Shown here piece after piece: positions 187-23,016 of a DNA stretch of 23,016 nt. This DNA is from a virus. Lineage: Duplodnaviria; Heunggongvirae; Uroviricota; Caudoviricetes. The stretch's first letter is position 1. Every line of letters begins with the position of its first letter. The position numbers were made by a program, and so were the translations under genes. The DNA is taken from the IMG/VR virus record IMGVR_UViG_2563366874_000001. One strand, given 5' to 3'. The notes under the pieces are model-generated. The model was not told the origin of the DNA, did no database searches, and saw nothing but the letters and a program-made list of their open reading frames with translations.

Positions 187-3867
<3,681 letters not shown>

Positions 3868-3887
<20 letters not shown>

Positions 3888-5187
3888 TCTCCCGCATATT
3901 ACCAGTATGGCCTTTAATGAGCCGCTGATGCTTGAACCCGCCTATGCGCGGGTTTTCTTTTGTGCGCTTGCAGGCCAGCTTGGGATCAGCCGCCTGACGG
4001 ATGCGGTATCCGGCGACAGCCTGACTGCCGGAGAGGCACCCGCGGCGCTGGCGTTATCCGTTGATGATGACGGACCACGGCAGGCCCGCAGTTATCAGGT
4101 CATGAACGGCATCGCCGTGCTGCCGGTGTCCGGCACGCTGGTCAGTCGGACGCGAGCGCTGCAGCCGTATTCGGGGATGACCGGTTACAACGGCATTATC
4201 GCCCGTCTGCAACAGGCTGCCAGCGACCCGATGGTGGACGGCATTCTGCTCGATATGGATACGCCAGGCGGGATGGTGGCAGGGGCATTTGACTGCGCTG
4301 ACATCATCGCCCGTGTGCGTGACATAAAGCCGGTATGGGCGCTGGCCAATGACATGAACTGCAGCGCAGGTCAGCTGCTTGCCAGTGCCGCCTCCCGGCG
4401 TCTGGTCACGCAGACCGCCCGGACAGGCTCCATCGGCGTCATGATGGCTCACAGTAATTACGGTGCTGCGCTGGAGAAACAGGGCGTGGAAATCACGCTG
4501 ATTTACAGCGGCAGCCATAAGGTGGATGGCAACCCCTACAGCCATCTACCGGATGATGTCCGGGAAACACTGCAGTCCCGGATGGATGCAACCCGCCGGA
4601 TGTTTGCACAGAAGGTGTCGGCATATACCGGCCTGTCCGTGCAGGCTGTGCTGGATACCGAGGCTGCAGTGTACAGCGGTCAGGAGGCCATTGATGCCGG
4701 ACTGGCTGATGAACTTGTTAACAGTACCGATGCGATCACCATCATGCGTGATGCACTGGATGCACGTAAATCCCGTCTCTCAGGAGGGCGAATGACCAAA
4801 GAGACTCAATCAACAACTGTTTCAGCCACTGCTTCGCAGGCTGACGTTACTGGCGTGGTGCAAGCGACGGAGGGCGAGAACGCCAGCGCTGCGCAGCCGG
4901 ACGTGAACGCGCAGATCACCGCAGCTGTTGCGGCAGAAAACAGTCGCATTATGGGGATCCTCAACTGTGAGGAGGCTCACGGACGCGAAGAACAGGCACG
5001 CGTGCTGGCCGAAACCCCCGGTATGACCGTGGAAACGGCCCGCCGCATTCTGGCAGTTGCACCACAGAGTGCACAGGCGCGCAGTGACACTGCGCTGGAT
5101 CGTCTGATGCAGGGGGCACCGGCACCGCTGGCTGCAGGTAACCCGGCATCTGATGCCGTTAACGATTTGCTGAACACACCAGTGTAA
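3868..5187 (+). CDS. C: Head maturation protease / scaffold C (439 aa), serine peptidase (S49-like), GTG start
   Basis: The track ORF 3733-5187 contains the gpC-like sequence from V/M-TAELRNLPHI. GTG at 3868 gives 439 aa, the length of lambda gpC, and overlaps the end of B by 20 nt. Confidence 0.88.
4582..5187 (+). CDS. nu3: Scaffolding protein Nu3, nested in-frame within the 3' third of C
   Basis: Internal in-frame ATG (MDATRRMFAQ...) 714 nt into C. In lambda, Nu3 is an in-frame internal initiation product of about 201 aa sharing the C stop codon. Confidence 0.7.
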   Translation: MDATRRMFAQKVSAYTGLSVQAVLDTEAAVYSGQEAIDAGLADELVNSTDAITIMRDALDARKSRLSGGRMTKETQSTTVSATASQADVTGVVQATEGENASAAQPDVNAQITAAVAAENSRIMGILNCEEAHGREEQARVLAETPGMTVETARRILAVAPQSAQARSDTALDRLMQGAPAPLAAGNPASDAVNDLLNTPV

Positions 5188-5546: not shown

Positions 5547-5571
5547 AAAGGCCGCCTGTGCGGCTTTTTTT
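5547..5571 (+). terminator. Hairpin followed by a T-run in the D-E intergenic region (possible attenuator or mRNA stabiliser)
   Basis: AAAGGCCGC-CTGT-GCGGCTTTTTTT: a 5-bp GC stem extended by A:U pairs, then a 7-T run. It lies inside a Q-antiterminated late operon, so it is probably read through. Confidence 0.4.
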
Positions 5572-6611: not shown

Positions 6612-6638
6612 ATGGCCCTTCGGGGCCATTTTCTCTTT
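6612..6638 (+). terminator. Stable stem-loop with a UUCG-type tetraloop and a U-rich tail immediately after the capsid gene
   Basis: ATGGCCC-TTCG-GGGCCAT is a perfect 7-bp stem with a TTCG loop, followed by TTTTCTCTTT, 3 nt after the E stop codon. The FI Shine-Dalgarno GGAGGA follows at 6641. Confidence 0.45.
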
Positions 6639-9622: not shown

Positions 9623-10038
9623 GTTTTGCCCTGAAACTGGCGCGTGAGATGGGGCGACCCGACTGGCGTGCCATGCTTGCCGGGATGTCATCCACGGAGT
9701 ATGCCGACTGGCACCGCTTTTACAGTACCCATTATTTTCATGATGTTCTGCTGGATATGCACTTTTCCGGGCTGACGTACACCGTGCTCAGCCTGTTTTT
9801 CAGCGATCCGGATATGCATCCGCTGGATTTCAGTCTGCTGAACCGGCGCGAGGCTGACGAAGAGCCTGAAGATGATGTGCTGATGCAGAAAGCGGCAGGG
9901 CTTGCCGGAGGTGTCCGCTTTGGCCCGGACGGGAATGAAGTTATCCCCGCTTCCCCGGATGTGGCGGACATGACGGAGGATGACGTAATGCTGATGACAG
10001 TATCAGAAGGGATCGCAGGAGGAGTCCGGTATGGCTGA
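9604..10038 (+). CDS. T: T segment of the G-T frameshift fusion tail assembly chaperone (expressed only as gpGT)
   Basis: The -1 frame relative to G is open from the slip site to TGA 10036-10038 and has no independent RBS or ATG. It overlaps the H start. Confidence 0.8.
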   Translation: MFDGELSFALKLAREMGRPDWRAMLAGMSSTEYADWHRFYSTHYFHDVLLDMHFSGLTYTVLSLFFSDPDMHPLDFSLLNRREADEEPEDDVLMQKAAGLAGGVRFGPDGNEVIPASPDVADMTEDDVMLMTVSEGIAGGVRYG

Positions 10039-13621: not shown

Positions 13622-14365
13622 ATGACACAGACAGAATCAGCGATTCTGGCGCACGCCCGGCGATGTGCGCCAGCGGAGTCGTGCGGCTTCGTGGTAAGCA
13701 CGCCGGAGGGGGAAAGATATTTCCCCTGCGTGAATATCTCCGGTGAGCCGGAGGCGTATTTCCGTATGTCGCCGGAAGACTGGCTGCAGGCAGAAATGCA
13801 GGGTGAGATTGTGGCGCTGGTCCACAGCCACCCCGGTGGCCTGCCCTGGCTGAGTGAGGCCGACCGGCGGCTGCAGGTGCAGAGTGATTTGCCGTGGTGG
13901 CTGGTCTGCCGGGGGACGATTCATAAGTTCCGCTGTGTGCCGCATCTCACCGGGCGGCGCTTTGAGCACGGTGTGACGGACTGTTACACACTGTTCCGGG
14001 ATGCTTATCATCTGGCGGGGATTGAGATGCCGGACTTTCATCGTGAGGATGACTGGTGGCGTAACGGCCAGAATCTCTATCTGGATAATCTGGAGGCGAC
14101 GGGGCTGTATCAGGTGCCGTTGTCAGCGGCACAGCCGGGCGATGTGCTGCTGTGCTGTTTTGGTTCATCGGTGCCGAATCACGCCGCAATTTACTGCGGC
14201 GACGGCGAGCTGCTGCACCATATTCCTGAACAACTGAGCAAACGAGAGAGGTACACCGACAAATGGCAGCGACGCACACACTCCCTCTGGCGTCACCGGG
14301 CATGGCGCGCATCTGCCTTTACGGGGATTTACAACGATTTGGTCGCCGCATCGACCTTCGTGTGA
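13622..14365 (+). CDS. K: Tail tip protein K with JAMM/MPN and NlpC/P60-like features; long-form start (alternative internal start at 13766 gives 199 aa)
   Basis: 247-aa ORF beginning 6 nt after the L stop. JAMM signature HSHPGGLPWLSEAD (H-x-H-x7-S-x2-D). The internal ATG at 13766 with GGAGG upstream corresponds to the 199-aa form I recall being annotated for lambda. Confidence 0.8.
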   Translation: MTQTESAILAHARRCAPAESCGFVVSTPEGERYFPCVNISGEPEAYFRMSPEDWLQAEMQGEIVALVHSHPGGLPWLSEADRRLQVQSDLPWWLVCRGTIHKFRCVPHLTGRRFEHGVTDCYTLFRDAYHLAGIEMPDFHREDDWWRNGQNLYLDNLEATGLYQVPLSAAQPGDVLLCCFGSSVPNHAAIYCGDGELLHHIPEQLSKRERYTDKWQRRTHSLWRHRAWRASAFTGIYNDLVAASTFV

Positions 14366-14934
14366 AAACGGGGGCTGAAGCCATCCGGGCACTGGCCACA
14401 CAGCTCCCGGCGTTTCGTCAGAAACTGAGCGACGGCTGGTATCAGGTACGGATTGCCGGGCGGGACGTCAGCACGTCCGGGTTAACGGCGCAGTTACATG
14501 AGACTCTGCCTGATGGCGCTGTGATTCATATTGTTCCCAGAGTCGCCGGGGCCAAGTCAGGTGGCGTATTCCAGATTGTCCTGGGGGCTGCCGCCATTGC
14601 CGGATCATTCTTTACCGCCGGAGCCACCCTTGCAGCATGGGGGGCAGCCATTGGGGCCGGTGGTATGACCGGCATCCTGTTTTCTCTCGGTGCCAGTATG
14701 GTGCTCGGTGGTGTGGCGCAGATGCTGGCACCGAAAGCCAGAACTCCCCGTACACAGACAACGGATAACGGTAAGCAGAACACCTATTTCTCCTCACTGG
14801 ATAACATGGTTGCCCAGGGCAATGTTCTGCCTGTTCTGTACGGGGAAATGCGCGTGGGGTCACGCGTGGTTTCTCAGGAGATCAGCACGGCAGACGAAGG
14901 GGACGGTGGTCAGGTTGTGGTGATTGGTCGCTGA
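14263..14934 (+). CDS. I: Tail tip protein I (223 aa)
   Basis: 223-aa ORF overlapping the 3' end of K by about 100 nt in another frame. Hydrophobic Gly/Ala-rich central segment. Confidence 0.9.
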   Translation: MAATHTLPLASPGMARICLYGDLQRFGRRIDLRVKTGAEAIRALATQLPAFRQKLSDGWYQVRIAGRDVSTSGLTAQLHETLPDGAVIHIVPRVAGAKSGGVFQIVLGAAAIAGSFFTAGATLAAWGAAIGAGGMTGILFSLGASMVLGGVAQMLAPKARTPRTQTTDNGKQNTYFSSLDNMVAQGNVLPVLYGEMRVGSRVVSQEISTADEGDGGQVVVIGR

Positions 14935-14952
14935 TGCAAAATGTTTTATGTG

Positions 14953-14980
14953 AAACCGCCTGCGGGCGGTTTTGTCATTT
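14953..14980 (+). terminator. Hairpin in the I-J intergenic region (weak terminator or attenuator candidate)
   Basis: AAACCGCC-TGCG-GGCGGTTT followed by TGTCATTT. The downstream U-tract is interrupted, so termination efficiency is doubtful. Confidence 0.3.
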
Positions 14981-14994
14981 ATGGAGCGTGAGGA

Positions 14995-17900
14995 ATGGGT
15001 AAAGGAAGCAGTAAGGGGCATACCCCGCGCGAAGCGAAGGACAACCTGAAGTCCACGCAGTTGCTGAGTGTGATCGATGCCATCAGCGAAGGGCCGGTTG
15101 AAGGTCCGGTGGATGGATTAAAAAGCGTGCTGCTGAACAGTACGCCGGTGCTGGACAGTGAGGGGAATACCAATATATCCGGCGTCACGGTGGTGTTCCG
15201 GGCCGGTGAGCAGGAGCAGACACCGCCGGAGGGATTTGAATCCTCCGGCTCCGAGACGGTGCTGGGTACGGAAGTGAAGTACGACACGCCGATTACCCGG
15301 ACCATCACGTCGGCAAACATCGACCGTCTGCGCTTTACCTTCGGTGTGCAGGCACTGGTGGAAACCACCTCAAAGGGGGACCGGAATCCGTCGGAAGTCC
15401 GCCTGCTGGTTCAGATACAGCGTAATGGTGGCTGGGTGACGGAAAAAGACATCACCATTAAAGGCAAAACCACCTCGCAGTATCTAACCTCGGTGGTGGT
15501 GGGTGACCTGCCGCCGCGTCCGTTCAATATCCGGATGCGCAGGATGACGCCGGACAGCACCACAGACCAGCTGCAGAACAAAACGCTCTGGTCGTCATAC
15601 ACCGAAATCATCGATGTGAAACAGTGCTACCCGAACACGGCACTGGTCGGCGTACAGGTGGATTCGGAGCAGTTCGGCAGCCAGCAGGTGAGCCGTAATT
15701 ATCATCTGCGCGGGCGTATTCTGCAGGTGCCGTCGAACTATAACCCGCAGACTCGGCAATACAGCGGTATCTGGGACGGAACGTTTAAGCCAGCATACAG
15801 CAATAACATGGCCTGGTGTCTGTGGGATATGCTGACCCATCCACGCTACGGCATGGGGAAACGTCTTGGTGCGGCGGATGTGGACAAATGGGCGCTGTAT
15901 GTCATCGGCCAGTACTGCGACCAGTCAGTGCCGGACGGCTTTGGCGGCACGGAGCCGCGCATCACCTGTAATGCGTACCTGACCACACAGCGCAAGGCGT
16001 GGGATGTGCTCAGTGATTTCTGCTCGGCGATGCGCTGTATGCCGGTATGGAACGGGCAGACGCTGACGTTCGTGCAGGACCGACCGTCGGATAAGGTGTG
16101 GACCTATAACCGCAGTAATGTGGTGATGCCGGATGATGGCGCGCCGTTCCGCTACAGCTTCAGCGCCCTGAAGGACCGCCATAATGCCGTTGAGGTGAAC
16201 TGGATTGACCCGGACAACGGCTGGGAGACGGCGACAGAGCTTGTTGAAGATACGCAGGCCATTGCCCGTTACGGTCGTAATGTCACGAAGATGGATGCCT
16301 TTGGCTGTACCAGCCGGGGGCAGGCACACCGCGCCGGGCTGTGGCTGATTAAAACGGAACTGCTGGAGACGCAGACCGTGGATTTCAGCGTGGGTGCTGA
16401 AGGGCTTCGCCATGTACCGGGCGATGTCATTGAAATCTGCGATGATGACTATGCCGGTATCAGCACCGGTGGTCGCGTGCTGGCGGTGAACAGCCAGACC
16501 CGGACGCTGACGCTCGACCGTGAAATCACGCTGCCATCCTCCGGTACCACGCTGATAAGCCTGGTTGACGGAAGTGGTAATCCGGTCAGCGTGGAGGTTC
16601 AGTCCGTCACCGACGGACTTAAGGTGAAAGTGAACCGGGTTCCTGACGGCGTTGCAGAATACAGTGTGTGGGGGCTGAAGTTGCCGACGTTGCGTCAGCG
16701 CCTGTTCCGCTGTGTGAGTATCCGTGAGAACGATGACGGCACGTATGCCATCACTGCCGTGCAGCATGTACCGGAAAAAGAAGCCATCGTGGATAACGGG
16801 GCGCACTTTGACGGCGACCAGAGCGGCACGGTGAATGGTGTCACGCCGCCAGCGGTGCAGCACCTGACCGCCGAAGTCACCGCAGACAGCGGGGAATATC
16901 AGGTGCTGGCGCGCTGGGACACGCCGAAGGTGGTGAAGGGCGTGAGCTTCCTGCTCCGTCTGACCGTAACAGCGGATGACGGCAGTGAGCGGCTGGTCAG
17001 CACGGCCCGGACGACGGAAACCACATACCGCTTCACGCAACTGGCGCTGGGGAACTACAGACTGACAGTCCGGGCGGTAAATGCGTGGGGGCAGCAGGGC
17101 GATCCGGCGTCGGTATCGTTCCGGATTGCCGCACCGGCAGCACCGTCGAGGATTGAGCTGACGCCGGGCTATTTTCAGATAACCGCCACGCCGCATCTTG
17201 CCGTTTATGACCCGACGGTACAGTTTGAGTTCTGGTTCTCGGAAAAGCGGATTACCGATATCAGGCAGGTTGAAACCACAGCCCGCTATCTTGGTACGGC
17301 GCTGTACTGGATAGCCGCCAGTATCAATATCAAACCGGGCCATGATTATTACTTTTATATCCGCAGTGTGAACACCGTTGGCAAATCGGCATTCGTGGAG
17401 GCTGTCGGTCAGGCGAGCGATGATGCGGAAGGTTACCTAGATTTTTTCAAAGGCCAGATAACCGAATCCCATCTCGGCAAGGAGCTGCTGGAAAAAGTCG
17501 AGCTGACGGAGGATAACGCCAGCAGACTGGAGGAGTTTTCGAAAGAGTGGCAGGACGCTAACGATAAGTGGAATGCCATGTGGGGCGTCAAAATTGAGCA
17601 GACCAAAGACGGCAAACATTATGTCGCGGGTATTGGCCTCAGCATGGAGGACACGGAAGAAGGCAAGCTGAGCCAGTTTCTGGTTGCCGCTAACCGTATC
17701 GCGTTTATTGACCCGGCAAACGGGAATGAAACGCCGATGTTTGTGGCGCAGGGCAATCAGATATTTATGAACGACGTGTTCCTGAAGCGCCTGACGGCCC
17801 CGACCATTACCAGTGGTGGAAATCCACCGGCATTTTCCCTGACATCAGACGGAAAGCTGACCGCTAAAAATGCGGATATCAGTGGCAGAGTGAATGCGAA

Positions 17901-18408
17901 CGCCGGGACGCTCAACAATGTCACGGTAAATGAAAACTGTACGATTAAGGGCATGCTGGAGGCGACTCAGGTCAGAGGTGACTTCGTTAAAGCTGTATCC
18001 AAATCATTCCCGAAACAGGCTGGTACGTGGGGTAACACGGAAACACCAAACGGGACGGTTACAGTCACCATCAGCGATGATCATAACTTTGACCGTCAAA
18101 TCATTATTCCGCCCATTATCTTTAACGGAATAGCGTATAGCGATCCGGGAAGTGGTAATAACCCGGGAGGTACAAGATACACGGGTTATGGTTTTGAAGT
18201 TCGCAAAAACGGTGTATTAATCGCATCCAGAGAAACTAAAGGGGCCATTCCCGGTAGCTACAGTGCGGTTATTGATATGCCGAGTGGCAGGGGAAGCGTC
18301 ACTCTGGAGTTTAAGGTTTTCCATAAAGGCAATCAGTGGGCAGGTAATATCACCGACTGTACGGTGATTGTGACCAAAAAAGCCGCTTCCGGCATCAGTA
18401 TTCGTTGA
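14995..18408 (+). CDS. J: Central tail fiber / host specificity protein J (1137 aa)
   Basis: 1137-aa ORF starting [20 protein letters not shown]. Lambda gpJ is 1132 aa by my recollection. The last roughly 150 codons are visibly lower in GC than the rest of the gene. Confidence 0.95.
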
Positions 18409-18429
18409 AATTGTTATAACCCATATAAG

Positions 18430-18456
18430 GGCACCAGAAATGGTGCCTTTTTTATT
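18430..18456 (+). terminator. Rho-independent terminator downstream of J
   Basis: GGCACCA-GAAA-TGGTGCC is a perfect 7-bp stem with a GAAA loop, followed by TTTTTTATT. Confidence 0.7.
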
Positions 18457-18477
18457 GCAGAAAAGCGAGAGGTAATT

Positions 18478-19077
18478 ATGCGTAAACTTTATGCCGCCAT
18501 TTTGTCCGCAGCCATTTGTCTGGCCGTATCCGGTGCGCCTGCATGGGCATCTGAACATCAGTCCACGCTGAGCGCGGGGTATCTTCATGCCCGGACCAAC
18601 GTTCCCGGCAGTGATGATCTGAACGGGATTAACGTGAAATACCGTTATGAGTTTACGGATACGCTGGGGCTGGTGACGTCATTCAGCTATGCAGGAGACA
18701 AGAATCGCCAGCTGACCCGTTACAGCGATACCCGCTGGCATGAAGATTCCGTGCGTAACCGCTGGTTCAGCGTGATGGCGGGGCCGTCTGTGCGCGTGAA
18801 TGAATGGTTCAGCGCGTATGCGATGGCGGGTATGGCTTACAGCCGTGTTTCGACTTTTTCCGGGGATTACCTTCGCGTAACTGACAACAAGGGGAAAACG
18901 CACGATGTGCTGACCGGAAGTGATGACGGTCGCCACAGCAACACGTCTCTGGCGTGGGGGGCTGGCGTGCAGTTTAACCCGACCGAATCCGTGGCCATTG
19001 ATATTGCTTATGAAGGTTCTGGCAGTGGTGACTGGCGCACTGACGGTTTCATCGTGGGTGTCGGTTATAAATTCTGA
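18478..19077 (+). CDS. lom: Outer membrane beta-barrel protein Lom (Ail/OmpX family), 199 aa, with signal peptide
   Basis: N-terminal signal peptide MRKLYAAILSAAICLAVSGAPAWA, alternating beta-strand pattern, and a C-terminal aromatic end (GVGYKF). Located between J and stf as in lambda. Confidence 0.9.
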   Translation: MRKLYAAILSAAICLAVSGAPAWASEHQSTLSAGYLHARTNVPGSDDLNGINVKYRYEFTDTLGLVTSFSYAGDKNRQLTRYSDTRWHEDSVRNRWFSVMAGPSVRVNEWFSAYAMAGMAYSRVSTFSGDYLRVTDNKGKTHDVLTGSDDGRHSNTSLAWGAGVQFNPTESVAIDIAYEGSGSGDWRTDGFIVGVGYKF

Positions 19078-19104
19078 TTAGCCAGGTAACACAGTGTTAT
19101 GACA

Positions 19105-19133
19105 GCCCGCCGGTTCAGGTGGGCTTTTTTGTG
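19105..19133 (+). terminator. Rho-independent terminator downstream of lom
   Basis: GCCCGCC-GGTTCA-GGTGGGC is a 7-bp stem with one G:U pair, followed by TTTTTTGTG. Confidence 0.6.
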
Positions 19134-19141
19134 GGGGGAAT

Positions 19142-21538
19142 ATGGCAGTAAAGATTTCAGGTGTACTGAAAGACGGCACAGGAAAACCGGTACAGAACTG
19201 CTCAATCCAGCTGAAAGCAAAACGTAACAGCACCACGGTGGTAGTGAACACGCTGGCCTCAGAAAATCCGGATGAAGCCGGGCGTTACAGTATGGATGTT
19301 GAGTATGGCCAGTACAGCGTTATCCTGCTGGTTGAAGATTTTCCGCCTTCACATGCCGGGACCATCACCGTGTATGAAGATTCTAAGCCGGGGACGCTGA
19401 ATGATTTTCTCGGTGCCATGACGGAAGATGATGTCATGCCGGAGGCATTGCGTCGTTTTGAGGAAATGGTGGAAGAAGCGGCACGCAACGCTGAAGCCGC
19501 CTCTCAGAGCGCAGCGGCGGCAAAGAAATCCGAAACTGCAGCGGCATCATCGAAGAACGCGGCGAAAACCTCAGAAACGAATGCAGCTAATAGTGCACAG
19601 GCGGCAGCGACCTCAAAGACTGCATCGGCAAACTCCGCGACAGCAGCCAAAAAATCAGAAACCAACGCGAAAAATAGCGAGACAGCCGCAAAGACGAGCG
19701 AAACCAACGCAAAGTCCAGCCAGACGGCAGCGAAAACCAGCGAAACGAATGCCAAAGCCAGTGAAACTGCGGCAAAAAACAGCCAGGTTGCAGCAGCCCA
19801 AAGCGAGAGCGCGGCAGCCGGTTCTGCGACTTCAGCAGCTGGATCAGCAACTGCTGCGGCTAACAGCCAGAAAGCTGCGAAGACGAGTGAAACTAACGCA
19901 AAGTCCAGCCAGACGGCAGCGAAGACCAGCGAAACGAATGCCAAAACCAGCGAAACTGCGGCGAAAAACAGTCAGGATGCAGCAGCCCAAAGCGAGAGTG
20001 CTGCAGCTGGTTCTGCAAGCGCGGCAGCTGCTTCTGCCACTGCATCAGCCAACAGTCAAAAAGCAGCAAAAACCAGTGAAACCAATGCAAAGACAAGCGA
20101 GACTGCAGCGGCGAACTCGGCGAAAGCATCGGCAGCAAGCCAGACAGCAGCTAAAGCAAGTGAAGACGCAGCCAGAGAGTATGCAAGTCAGGCAGCAGAG
20201 CCGTATAAATATGTCTTACAGCCACTGCCTGATGTGTGGATACCGTTTAACGATTCACTGGATATGATTACGGGCTTTTCGCCGTCATATAAAAAAATTG
20301 TTATTGGTGATGATGAAATAACGATGCCTGGCGACAAGGTTGTTAAGTTTAAACGCGCATCAACTGCCACATATATCAATAAATCAGGCGTATTTAGTGT
20401 TGCTAAAATTGATGAGCCACGATTTGAAAAAGAAGGTTTATTGATTGAAGGACAGCGCACTAACTATTTTGTTAAATCCAATACTCCCGCTGAATGGACG
20501 AGTACCAGCAATATCGATAAAACTAATAATGGTGTTGATGAATTTGGTTTTTCATATGCCAAAATGCGAACAAAAGATAATATGACAGGACAATCATCTG
20601 CACTTAGTCTGCATACATGCAGTGCATCCCGGGGGATTGATGTTAGTGGCGATAATAAGTATTGCACTGTTTCATGCAGGGTTAAAGCTCCTGATGGTCT
20701 TCGTTGTCGTTTGCGTTTTGAAAAATACGATGGGTCGGTTTATACATTTTTAGGAGATGCTTATTTAACTTTCGGAACTCTGATAATAGAAAAAACTGGC
20801 GGAGCAGCCAATAGAATAGCAGCTACTGCAACTAAAGATCCGGTTACAGGGTGGATTTTCTATGAGGCAACTATAGAAGCTGTTGAAGGTGAAACCTTAA
20901 TTGGCGCAATGATTCAGTATGCGCCGAAAAAAGGTGGTATAACTGAAGCGGGAGATTATATTTACCTTGCAACACCACAATTTGAAAACGGCGGATGTGC
21001 TTCATCTTTTGTTATTACGACAACTGCACCCGCAACCCGCTCCAGTGATATGGTGACGATCCCAACTGAAAATAATATCTATAATAGACCGCTTACGTGT
21101 CTTGTCGAGGTTAATAGAAATTGGGGCGATATTCCTCCTAATGTAGCACCGCGTATTTTTGATTTTTCTGGTGTGCCACCTATTGAGTCAATTACATACG
21201 CTTTTAACACAACTGAGAAATATTACGGTCAGCTTTATATGCAAACTTATAAAGCGTCGACAAGTACTTACGTTTCTAGTGTGTTTGCTGGTCGAGCTGA
21301 TGTTCGAAAATTCATTGGTGGTTTTAATATTTATTCTGATGGTACTAAACGAGTAGTTTCTAACGGTGAGGCTACTAAAACTATGAAAACGGAGTGGACG
21401 GGCGTAAAAACACGGACCTTTATTCGAATTGGAGGTCAAGCCACATCGGGAACTCGTCATCTATTCGGCCATTTGAGAAATCTTCGTCTCTGGCATAAAG
21501 AATTAACTGATGCGCAAATGGGGGAGAGTATTAAATGA
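19142..21538 (+). CDS. stf: Side tail fiber protein (798 aa), mosaic: lambda-Stf-like N-terminus, Ala/Ser/Thr-rich repeat shaft, low-GC C-terminal receptor-binding region
   Basis: The N-terminus MAVKISGVLKDGTGKPVQNC...TITVYED matches my recollection of the lambda Stf N-terminal domain. Residues about 120-350 are AAKTSETNAK-type repeats. From about nt 20200 the sequence is AT-rich and ends with a LamG/ConA-like signature (HLFGHLRNLRLWHKELTDAQMGE). Confidence 0.85.
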   Translation: MAVKISGVLKDGTGKPVQNCSIQLKAKRNSTTVVVNTLASENPDEAGRYSMDVEYGQYSVILLVEDFPPSHAGTITVYEDSKPGTLNDFLGAMTEDDVMPEALRRFEEMVEEAARNAEAASQSAAAAKKSETAAASSKNAAKTSETNAANSAQAAATSKTASANSATAAKKSETNAKNSETAAKTSETNAKSSQTAAKTSETNAKASETAAKNSQVAAAQSESAAAGSATSAAGSATAAANSQKAAKTSETNAKSSQTAAKTSETNAKTSETAAKNSQDAAAQSESAAAGSASAAAASATASANSQKAAKTSETNAKTSETAAANSAKASAASQTAAKASEDAAREYASQAAEPYKYVLQPLPDVWIPFNDSLDMITGFSPSYKKIVIGDDEITMPGDKVVKFKRASTATYINKSGVFSVAKIDEPRFEKEGLLIEGQRTNYFVKSNTPAEWTSTSNIDKTNNGVDEFGFSYAKMRTKDNMTGQSSALSLHTCSASRGIDVSGDNKYCTVSCRVKAPDGLRCRLRFEKYDGSVYTFLGDAYLTFGTLIIEKTGGAANRIAATATKDPVTGWIFYEATIEAVEGETLIGAMIQYAPKKGGITEAGDYIYLATPQFENGGCASSFVITTTAPATRSSDMVTIPTENNIYNRPLTCLVEVNRNWGDIPPNVAPRIFDFSGVPPIESITYAFNTTEKYYGQLYMQTYKASTSTYVSSVFAGRADVRKFIGGFNIYSDGTKRVVSNGEATKTMKTEWTGVKTRTFIRIGGQATSGTRHLFGHLRNLRLWHKELTDAQMGESIK
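19688..20062 (+). repeat. Two tandem copies of an approximately 186-189 bp (62-63 aa) in-frame coding repeat within stf, themselves built from roughly 21-bp (7-aa) sub-repeats
   Basis: Copy 1 at 19688-19873 encodes AKTSETNAKSSQTAAKTSETNAKASETAAKNSQVAAAQSESAAAGSATSAAGSATAAANSQK. Copy 2 at about 19877-20062 encodes the same with a few substitutions. The segment AAAGTCCAGCCAGACGGCAGCGAA recurs at 19710 and 19890. Confidence 0.85.
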
Positions 21539-21816
21539 AAGATTTAACACTCAAATTTGCAGACAGGGCCGACTTTTCGGCCTTTATGGAGAGCATTGGC
21601 TATTATGATGACGAGTCGATGCAGGATGATATTCTTATTGACGTGATAGGTAATGTGTACAAAGAAACCGGAGAACTTACTGAAGATGGCGAGCCGGTAT
21701 GTGTTAAGGAGGACGGATATTTTGTAAATGTGCGCATCATTAATGATTCGCAAATATCGTCATTATTCGATGAATACGTGGTTGCTGTTGAGCATCAACT
21801 CCGTAGCTGGATGTGA
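21535..21816 (+). CDS. Small acidic hypothetical protein (93 aa), translationally coupled to stf; possible tail fiber assembly or chaperone factor
   Basis: ATGA overlap with the stf stop codon. Low GC like the stf 3' region. No recognisable similarity to lambda Tfa, so the function is inferred from position only. Confidence 0.5.
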   Translation: MKDLTLKFADRADFSAFMESIGYYDDESMQDDILIDVIGNVYKETGELTEDGEPVCVKEDGYFVNVRIINDSQISSLFDEYVVAVEHQLRSWM

Positions 21817-21825
21817 GGAAGAAAA

Positions 21826-22530
21826 ATGGCTACATCGACAGTAATTCCTGATGACATCAAAACGCTAAAGGGAGATGTCAGTAAGGCAAAGGAAGATATT
21901 TCCTCAATTAACGTAAAAGTATCAACGCTTCAGACTGATATGGACAGTGCAAAGCAGGATATCAGTACCAGATACACAAAAACAGAAGTGGATAATAAGC
22001 TGAAAAACAAAGTGGAAGTGAACGATCTGGAAAGTGGTCGTTATGGCGGAGATTTTTACCCGCTGACTGGCCGTGAAGCGTTTTATTTATGGGGATTGGG
22101 CACAACTACAGCGGCGGCAAATCTTTATCTTAATCCTGACCCTGCAATTTCGTCTGTGCTGCGGTCAACATCGTCTATCCGCTATAAACATTCAGTAGAG
22201 ACGATAGATTCAGAGCACGCCGATCTCATTTTCAGGATGCGCCCTGTGTGGTACAGGTCGCAATGCGAAAATGACAGGCGTGACTGGGGATTCTATGGAT
22301 TGATTGCCGAGGAAGTAGGAGAAATTGCCCCTCAGTTTGTTCACTGGCGACCAGCCAACGAAGATGATGCACCGGAAACCATTTCCAGCAATGGCCTTGT
22401 TGCCGAAGGTGTAATGTACGAACGTCTGGTTGTTCCACTGATTCACCATATCCAGAAACTGACTGAAAGAGTTGATGAACTTGAGTCAGAATTGAAGTTG
22501 TTATCAACTTCCCAAAGCGATATCGGATAA
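21826..22530 (+). CDS. Tail-fiber-like protein (234 aa): N-terminal coiled-coil-like region plus C-terminal peptidase-S74-like intramolecular chaperone domain
   Basis: GGAAGA Shine-Dalgarno-like sequence upstream of ATG 21826. The C-terminal half (SSIRYKHSVETIDSEHADLIFRMRPVWYR...GLIAEEV...LVVPLIHHIQKLTERVDELESELKLL) follows the pattern of the endosialidase/T5 pb1 C-terminal chaperone domain, including a Ser-x4-Lys dyad at S116/K121 (nt 22171-22188). Confidence 0.65.
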   Translation: MATSTVIPDDIKTLKGDVSKAKEDISSINVKVSTLQTDMDSAKQDISTRYTKTEVDNKLKNKVEVNDLESGRYGGDFYPLTGREAFYLWGLGTTTAAANLYLNPDPAISSVLRSTSSIRYKHSVETIDSEHADLIFRMRPVWYRSQCENDRRDWGFYGLIAEEVGEIAPQFVHWRPANEDDAPETISSNGLVAEGVMYERLVVPLIHHIQKLTERVDELESELKLLSTSQSDIG

Positions 22531-22551
22531 AGGAGGAGTAATGGATATAAC

Positions 22552-23016
<465 letters not shown>

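Follow-up and report, generated by a model that had tools for sequence, protein, structure and literature searches.

Lom-family proteins are adhesion and virulence factors borne by prophages. The experimentally studied case is lambda lom (NC_001416, 18965-19585), which lies between J and stf, has been treated as a moron, and has been counted among the few genes expressed from the prophage in lysogens (PMC3594210, PMC7067206, PMC1151598). The gene is dispensable for plaque formation (PMC10695390), and lambda Lom is reported as strongly expressed in the lytic cycle (PMC9836094, citing ribosome profiling by Liu et al., 2013), so that expression has been reported both in lysogens (PMC1151598) and during lytic growth. 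In a microarray study from 2007, lom went undetected in lambda lysogens, and the study stated that little was known of the lom promoter (PMC2147009). Morons themselves were defined from HK97 and HK022 (Juhala et al., 2000, as given in PMC3594210) as genes with their own promoter and terminator and an atypical G+C content.

The window analysed here is a stretch of 23,016 nucleotides, and all coordinates refer to it. Phages 2G7b, ev207, Perceval and lambda h434 match 85-87% of its length at 96-98% identity. Base 1 of the window aligns at about base 550 in lambda-like phage genomes, and the window runs through the head and tail genes. The late gene J (tail tip and host specificity protein, 1137 aa; 14995..18408, + strand), identified by its open reading frame and a Pfam series of J domains from Phage-tail_3 to Ig_GpJ_C, ends in a TGA stop codon at 18406-18408 and lies 5' of lom (18478..19077, + strand). 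Downstream of lom is stf (19142..21538, + strand), an intact late gene encoding a side tail fibre of 798 aa with a Pfam phage_tail_N match (E = 1.9e-68), and stf and the subsequent genes are on the same strand as lom. The gaps between these genes are short, 69 nt between J and lom and 64 nt between lom and stf, and each is filled by one hairpin and a run of six Ts.

The lom product is predicted to be an Ail/Lom outer membrane beta-barrel precursor of 199 aa. A first-pass annotation of this DNA had placed it in the Ail/Lom family, and the Pfam match to Ail_Lom (PF06316), which covers residues 1-199 of 199 with E = 5e-120, bears this out; its N-terminal sequence, MRKLYAAILSAAICLAVSGAPAWA, resembles a signal peptide. 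The same annotation had credited lom with a strong ribosome binding site, which is readily seen in the sequence as a Shine-Dalgarno GAGAGG (18467..18472, + strand), 5 nt before the ATG at 18478, with no variation among the aligned alleles of the upstream spacer. The G+C fraction of lom (0.52-0.57) is no different from that of the flanking genes (0.46-0.53 at the 3' end of J, 0.49-0.56 at the 5' end of stf). Many prophages carry a Lom protein with 97-100% identity to this one, and of 5426 complete E. coli genomes, 4732 (87%) match the 742-bp lom cassette; genomes that carry it have a median of two copies and at most fourteen. The gene is best read as the well-known outer-membrane accessory gene of the Ail/Lom family, placed between J and stf in a late operon of the lambda/434 type.

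The closest described relatives are phages 434 (OL657226.1) and Ayreon (MF807953.1), which are 97.5-97.7% identical to the window over 18300-19250 and have the same gene order. Both records carry the two hairpins at the same positions, annotated as "terminator" with no experiment cited in the record fields shown, and the 434 record annotates the lom ribosome binding site as well. They differ from the window in this region by point differences only, one of which falls in the downstream stem, GGCGGGC in those phages and GGTGGGC, with a G.U pair, in the window. Lambda itself is a more distant relative. Homology resumes inside lom, and over 18950-19491 lambda is 87% identical to the window; this homologous stretch takes in the final ~130 nt of lom, the downstream terminator and the beginning of stf. 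The lambda downstream terminator is nearly identical to that of the window except for its loop, GGAACC. The lambda J-lom gap holds an unrelated hairpin, CGTCCG/GGAA/CGGGCG followed by TTTTATT, and the NC_001416 record has no terminators annotated around lom. The hairpins were considered as mosaic boundaries and this was rejected, as the breakpoint of homology with lambda, at about 18950, is inside lom and at neither hairpin. The published experiments deal with lambda Lom; that protein shares only 46% identity with the one described here, and the hairpin upstream of its gene is a different one. HK97 has no lom, its J and stf being separated by a gap of 207 nt, and in N15 other small genes, including cor, occupy the J-stf junction.

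The first-pass annotation had placed terminators on both sides of lom, at 18430-18456 and 19105-19133, and a hairpin with a T-run was found at each of these positions. The upstream feature, a predicted Rho-independent terminator at 18427..18456 on the + strand, was recovered by a consensus scan, a strict scan, folding and covariation. Its stem, 18427-18450, reads AAGGGCACCA/GAAA/TGGTGCCTTT and has 10 pairs, 5 of them G-C, around a core of GGGCACCA/TGGTGCCT and a GAAA loop at 18437-18440; the T-run TTTTTT occupies 18448-18453 and is followed by ATT (tail TTTTTTATT). The predicted folding energy is -15.6 kcal/mol (z = -3.65 relative to shuffles). The stem begins 19 nt past the J stop codon, and 21 nt (18457-18477) separate the end of the T-run region from the lom ATG.

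To compare the spacers around lom, we extracted them from 39 loci in one-genome-per-species bacterial contigs and 80 loci in viral contigs. The upstream spacer occurs in at least 20 distinct forms among the collected loci, with stem variants that include CACC/GGTG, CGTC/GACG and CGCC/GGCG as well as a lengthened form, GGCACCTC/GAGGTGCC. In the covariation alignment of 18 distinct alleles, 95.8% of the cells of the stem are paired, and both sides have changed in 4 of 8 pairs. This covariation score was equalled by none of 500 shuffles, and sliding the partner columns reduced pairing to 35-59%. The T-run shows no variation across the aligned alleles. Citrobacter, with a Lom protein 70% identical to this one, has another upstream hairpin, AGCGCTC/GGGCGCT, and every form of upstream hairpin, including those of Citrobacter and lambda, is followed by TTTT(T)ATT and then the GAGAGG ribosome binding site. 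Three rare alleles depart from the pattern: one (L099) combines two alleles and has two mismatches in its stem, another (L073) has an inverted loop, and in a third (L067) all of the sequence before the midpoint of the 5' arm has been replaced by foreign DNA. Since L099 and L067 are natural alleles in which pairing is broken, the upstream stem is not indispensable. An attenuator with an upstream antiterminator was also considered and rejected; across seven alleles there was no conserved complement to the 5' arm of the upstream hairpin, and none longer than 6 nt.

The downstream feature, likewise a predicted Rho-independent terminator on the + strand (19104..19130; consensus scan, strict scan and folding), has a stem at 19104-19125 that reads AGCCCGCC/GGTTCA/GGTGGGCT, with 8 pairs, of which 6 are G-C and one is G.U, closed by the 6-nt loop GGTTCA. 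The T-run TTTTTT lies at 19125-19130 (tail TTTTTTG), and the predicted folding energy is -16.7 kcal/mol (z = -2.76 relative to shuffles). The stem begins 27 nt past the lom stop codon, and the end of the terminator is 11 nt from the stf ATG. When 16 E. coli alleles were compared, most substitutions proved to be in the loop. The downstream T-run is nearly invariant. Five positions of the stem vary, and at four of them the changes keep a G.U-compatible pairing in the + strand RNA; in one allele (L058) a single terminal pair is broken. Conservation of this stem is too high for covariation to be read from it, the changes being wobble-compatible in all alleles except L058. Citrobacter also has a hairpin 3' of lom, with a poor tail, ATCTTATGG, which looks more like a plain stem-loop.

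A lenient consensus scan for terminators returned 8 matches in the window, with 8.6 expected, and the pair flanking lom were the top matches. A strict scan, which called for a hairpin of dG <= -10 kcal/mol with at least 5 Ts within the next 6 bases, found 7 distinct sites on the + strand, relative to 0.91 +/- 0.92 in 100 dinucleotide shuffles (maximum 4), and 1 site on the - strand. At the shuffle rate, ~0.003 strict matches would be expected by chance in a gap such as J-lom or lom-stf. Read from the sequence, no T-run follows either hairpin on the - strand, and both are therefore unidirectional. Rfam at gathering thresholds matched no families anywhere in the window, and when 18200-19300 was searched permissively, all matches were below threshold and taken as noise, among them STnc50 (18.9 bits; cut-off 55) and Trp_leader (16.8 bits; cut-off 41).

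Both hairpins thus have a G+C-rich stem within the ~5-14 bp and a loop within the 3-8 nt of intrinsic terminators, a U-tract that directly follows the stem and is confined to the transcribed strand, and a position just past a stop codon, co-oriented with the gene; the upstream hairpin also has compensatory substitutions. Judged from alignments, the pattern of conservation in the spacers matches what would be expected of selection on hairpins in the + strand RNA. The analysis shows the structures, their strand specificity, conservation and covariation, the identities of the genes and the lack of a recognisable promoter; actual termination, read-through under Q, and expression of lom from the prophage are inferred. 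It is very improbable that the hairpins are instead inverted repeats that arose by chance, or sites acting as DNA, for example recombination junctions or palindromes bound by a protein: the lenient scan was not enriched, and the hybrid allele L099 and the inverted loop of L073 suggest recombination inside the upstream hairpin, but the strict scan was strongly enriched on the + strand only, the upstream stem carries compensatory changes, the G.U-compatible substitutions keep pairing only in the + strand RNA, and the mosaic junction with lambda, where homology resumes at 18950, is not at the hairpins.

Similar hairpins are found elsewhere in the late operon. The I-J gap has one at 14954-14971, AACCGCCTGCGGGCGGTT with TTTTGTC behind it; a second, with a UUCG loop, follows E in the E-FI gap (6612-6629), and a third is in the D-E gap (~5550-5568). 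In the phage 434 record, terminators are marked in the D-E, I-J, J-lom and lom-stf gaps and again past tfa, and the records of HK97 and N15 each annotate one just upstream of J. Because of the hairpin in the I-J gap, J too is flanked by terminators, and flanking hairpins are therefore no marker of a cassette. The terminators on either side of lom exemplify a general feature of the late operon.

Read-through of terminators is an established property of the Q-modified polymerase that starts from pR', and the Q antitermination of pR' transcripts has been described (PMC7547250). With this in mind, the explanation we favour, to which we assign a probability of roughly 0.78, is that two genuine + strand Rho-independent terminators bracket lom and affect only polymerase that has not been modified by Q, while late transcription passes them. 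In this scheme the sole target of both terminators would be ordinary RNA polymerase, initiating in a repressed prophage or astray. At the end of J, the upstream terminator would halt adventitious transcripts arising within the head and tail genes, and the downstream one would end lom transcripts 11 nt before stf, which would keep the tail fibre genes silent in the lysogen. During lytic growth, Q-modified polymerase from pR' would ignore both, so that lom would be co-transcribed with the late genes and stf and later genes would be expressed by read-through. The gene order itself constrains the alternatives. A consensus scan found no promoter for stf in the 64-nt lom-stf gap, and stf can be reached only by transcription past both hairpins; lom is therefore not insulated from the late operon. 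Since late transcription must pass both hairpins, they can affect only polymerase unmodified by Q.

A somewhat unlikely alternative is that the hairpins act chiefly at the level of RNA, as 3' stem-loops that protect processed segments of the late mRNA (J and lom) or set their expression, with termination incidental. Such a role would account for the conservation of hairpins that are unable to terminate under Q antitermination, and it is consistent with the presence of hairpins behind D and E, genes needed abundantly, and with the stable tetraloops found upstream of lom (GAAA, GGAA and GAGA) and after E (UUCG). A protective stem-loop needs no U-tract, however, yet the T-runs are invariant upstream of lom and nearly so downstream, and a T-run is kept even where the stem has been wholly replaced, with lambda (TTTTATT) and the hairpin before lom in Citrobacter as examples. 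Conservation of the T-runs points to selection for termination. RNA protection and termination are compatible, and protection is possible as a secondary role.

Less probable still is the interpretation offered by the first-pass annotation, in which lom is an autonomous, insulated moron with its own promoter, perhaps in the 3' end of J, and with terminators that isolate it from the late operon. Several observations speak for it. The gene is absent from the J-stf junction of HK97, it has a terminator behind it and a good ribosome binding site, lambda lom has been reported to be expressed in lysogens (PMC1151598, PMC3594210), and the lom of phi24B is constitutive and uncoupled from induction (PMC3342100, PMC4651098). 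There is also a moderately promoter-like site within J, TTGACC-19-CATTAT, with a weight-matrix score of 8.05, where pRM scores 9.2. Against it, a promoter in J would be stopped by the upstream terminator, and none fits in 18457-18477; the suggested start in the 3' end of J is thus in conflict with the annotation's own observation of a terminator there. Expression of stf needs read-through of both hairpins, lambda Lom is reported as strongly expressed in the lytic cycle (PMC9836094), the G+C content of lom is ordinary, and J is bracketed in the same way. The autonomous lom of the phi24B type also differs in its layout, with an AT-rich leader and no upstream terminator.

A consensus scan of the + strand over 14000-23016 found no promoter-like sites, and a sigma-70 weight matrix, on which pR scores 12.2 and pL 11.9, gave no usable site in the 21 nt that separate the upstream T-run from the lom ATG; consensus scans of this kind may miss an activator-dependent or atypical promoter. 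The TTGACC-19-CATTAT site (18089-18119) was the best weight-matrix site within 500 nt upstream of lom. It lies 358 nt before lom and 5' of the upstream terminator, and as sites of this score occur about once per 2 kb of + strand, one within 500 nt is unremarkable. With the weight matrix applied to ten loci, no positionally conserved promoter was found in the 500 nt before lom, and the promoter-like candidates in J are not positionally conserved beyond the effect of the coding sequence. A motif of the form (A/T)TGACC..(G/C)AT(A/T)AT, ~357-377 nt upstream, was set aside because it occurs in four alleles only, within J coding sequence and 5' of the terminator. The papers searched gave no mapped lom start site or RNA 3' end. 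An apparently efficient terminator 21 nt before the ATG, with no recognisable promoter after it, leaves expression from the prophage without an evident route and weighs against the favoured explanation, as do the array study that missed lom in lambda lysogens, the low identity to the lambda Lom on which experiments were done, and the rare alleles with a broken upstream stem.

Measured against the features that define morons, then, the locus gives a mixed result. The gene is missing from otherwise syntenic phages, HK97 having no lom and N15 having other genes in its place, and it has its own terminator directly downstream in the hairpin and T-run at 19104-19130, but its base composition is like that of its neighbours. 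What survives of the description of lom as a classic moron architecture is an accessory gene with a downstream terminator; no promoter is seen, and there is a terminator upstream. The accompanying claim, that lom is insulated from late-operon read-through, fails on the position of stf downstream, as late transcription must cross both hairpins and the flanking terminators do not block operon transcription into or out of the gene.

A further possibility, which we consider quite unlikely, is that in lambda/434-type phages lom has no conventional promoter and that its expression in the prophage is driven either by weak promoters inside J, through leaky read-through of the J-lom terminator, or by an atypical promoter overlapping the spacer. 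A conserved motif, TTATAACCC, which is TGTTATAAC in the window (18412-18420), resembles an extended -10 element and is a candidate for such a promoter on the basis of its sequence; its start site would fall at the foot of the hairpin. If a promoter does overlap the spacer, the upstream "terminator" would instead be a leader element, an attenuator or a 5' stabilising stem-loop, and this leader element would set a low level of lom in the lysogen, with the 5' stem-loop of the ompA mRNA as a parallel.

Returning to the favoured explanation, in which both hairpins are terminators that Q-modified polymerase ignores, the structures flanking lom are real, ordinary and already known, as they are annotated in 434 and Ayreon. 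The analysis does not support the one part of the original interpretation that would have been new, namely that lom is insulated from the late operon, and beyond correct annotation the terminators have little significance. Hairpin terminators are common inside a Q-antiterminated late operon and would silence genes in the prophage state only; because they silence only in the prophage, they are no sign of insulation from late transcription and no marker of a moron.

The lom of this window is like the morons of HK97 and HK022 in being an extra, non-essential gene in the late operon, absent from HK97 and followed by a terminator, and unlike them in having no recognisable promoter, a terminator upstream, and ordinary G+C. 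The short-tailed Stx phages (Min27, P13374 and phi24B type) also carry an Ail/Lom gene with a strong downstream terminator, ACCCGC..GCGGGTTTTTTATTG. Their Lom proteins are 32-41% identical to that of the window and are encoded in a different gene neighbourhood, where lom is preceded by an AT-rich leader of ~190 nt containing TTGAAG-19-TAAAAT (score 10.7), which ends 59 nt before the ATG, and has no upstream terminator. The lom locus of the short-tailed Stx phages fits the definition of a moron; the locus in the window fits it only in part.

Across the whole late operon, the + strand is strongly enriched in T-run terminator-like hairpins: a strict scan (hairpin ΔG ≤ -10 kcal/mol and at least five T in the next six bases) returned 7, against 0.9 expected from dinucleotide shuffles and 1 on the - strand. 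Besides the pair flanking lom, the outer membrane protein gene, terminator-like hairpins on the + strand occupy the intergenic gaps D-E (5550-5568), E-FI (6612-6629) and I-J (14954-14971). When the window was mapped onto the gene map of phage 434, the other three were placed within coding sequence: just past the end of B (3935-3954), in T (9768-9795) and in K (14127-14157).

A motif, TTATAACCC, was found 8-10 nt 5' of the J-lom hairpin and is kept in most E. coli alleles, its conservation spanning two different J 3' ends; among the J-lom spacers compared, it is absent in lambda and Citrobacter. The window copy (18412-18420) reads TGTTATAAC, which is similar to an extended -10 element whose final nucleotide is C; as a candidate promoter element of this kind, it would have transcription begin at the base of the J-lom hairpin. 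The TG of the motif is not conserved.

The J-lom hairpin itself is disturbed in three natural variants among the collected lom loci. In L067 (positions 1-1200 of the locus, from IMGVR_UViG_2874945390_000010), J is replaced by unrelated sequence as far as the middle of the 5' arm, and the foreign segment terminates in a 10-bp hairpin, CCAGTCAGTT..AACTGACTGG, possibly an insertion-sequence end. L099 combines parts of two stem alleles and carries two mismatches, and in L073 the loop is inverted, from AGAAAT to ATTTCT. Lom loci at 46% identity, the same value as lambda's, were also encountered in assemblies of unrelated bacteria, Neobacillus, Kitasatospora, Pseudomonas, Shewanella and the like (L015-L026 and others). 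The contigs bearing them have low coverage, several are about 48.5 kb long, and the flanks of L015, the one locus of the set in which flanks were inspected, are identical to lambda's; these loci are almost certainly lambda DNA contaminating the assemblies.

Portal gene B (2286-3887, + strand) has an in-frame TAG at 3078-3080, where the phage 434 codon is CAG (Gln), which cuts the gene into two open reading frames, 2286-3080 and 3105-3887. The 401-bp stretch around this codon had no match at 100% among complete E. coli genomes, the best being 99.0%. By appearance the TAG is a private nonsense (amber) allele, so this phage could be defective or could be an amber mutant of laboratory origin. At the other end of the window, the 3' third of the side tail fibre gene, stf, is low in G+C (0.37-0.42 across 20250-21449, where the profile ends), and is followed by a 93-aa open reading frame without Pfam matches (21535-21816) and a 234-aa open reading frame encoding a Peptidase_S74 intramolecular-chaperone domain (21826-22530). 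The nearest phages, whose homology stops at about 20428, have none of this, and the region has the appearance of an exchanged module for the tail-fibre tip.

Inverted repeats were also seen in the lom-stf spacer and in a J-stf gap that lacks lom. The J-stf gap of HK97, which has no lom (L128, 4050-4159), contains a perfect 17-bp inverted repeat, GGAAGGTGCGAATAAGT ... ACTTATTCGCACCTTCC, with 76 nt between the arms and a T-rich segment enclosed. In the lom-stf spacer of the window, a perfect 13-bp palindrome, TAACACAGTGTTA, lies directly 5' of the terminator (19087-19099); by itself it is not significant, since chance alone should yield about five palindromes of the form 6-N1-6 in 23 kb. The palindrome of lambda is identical to it.
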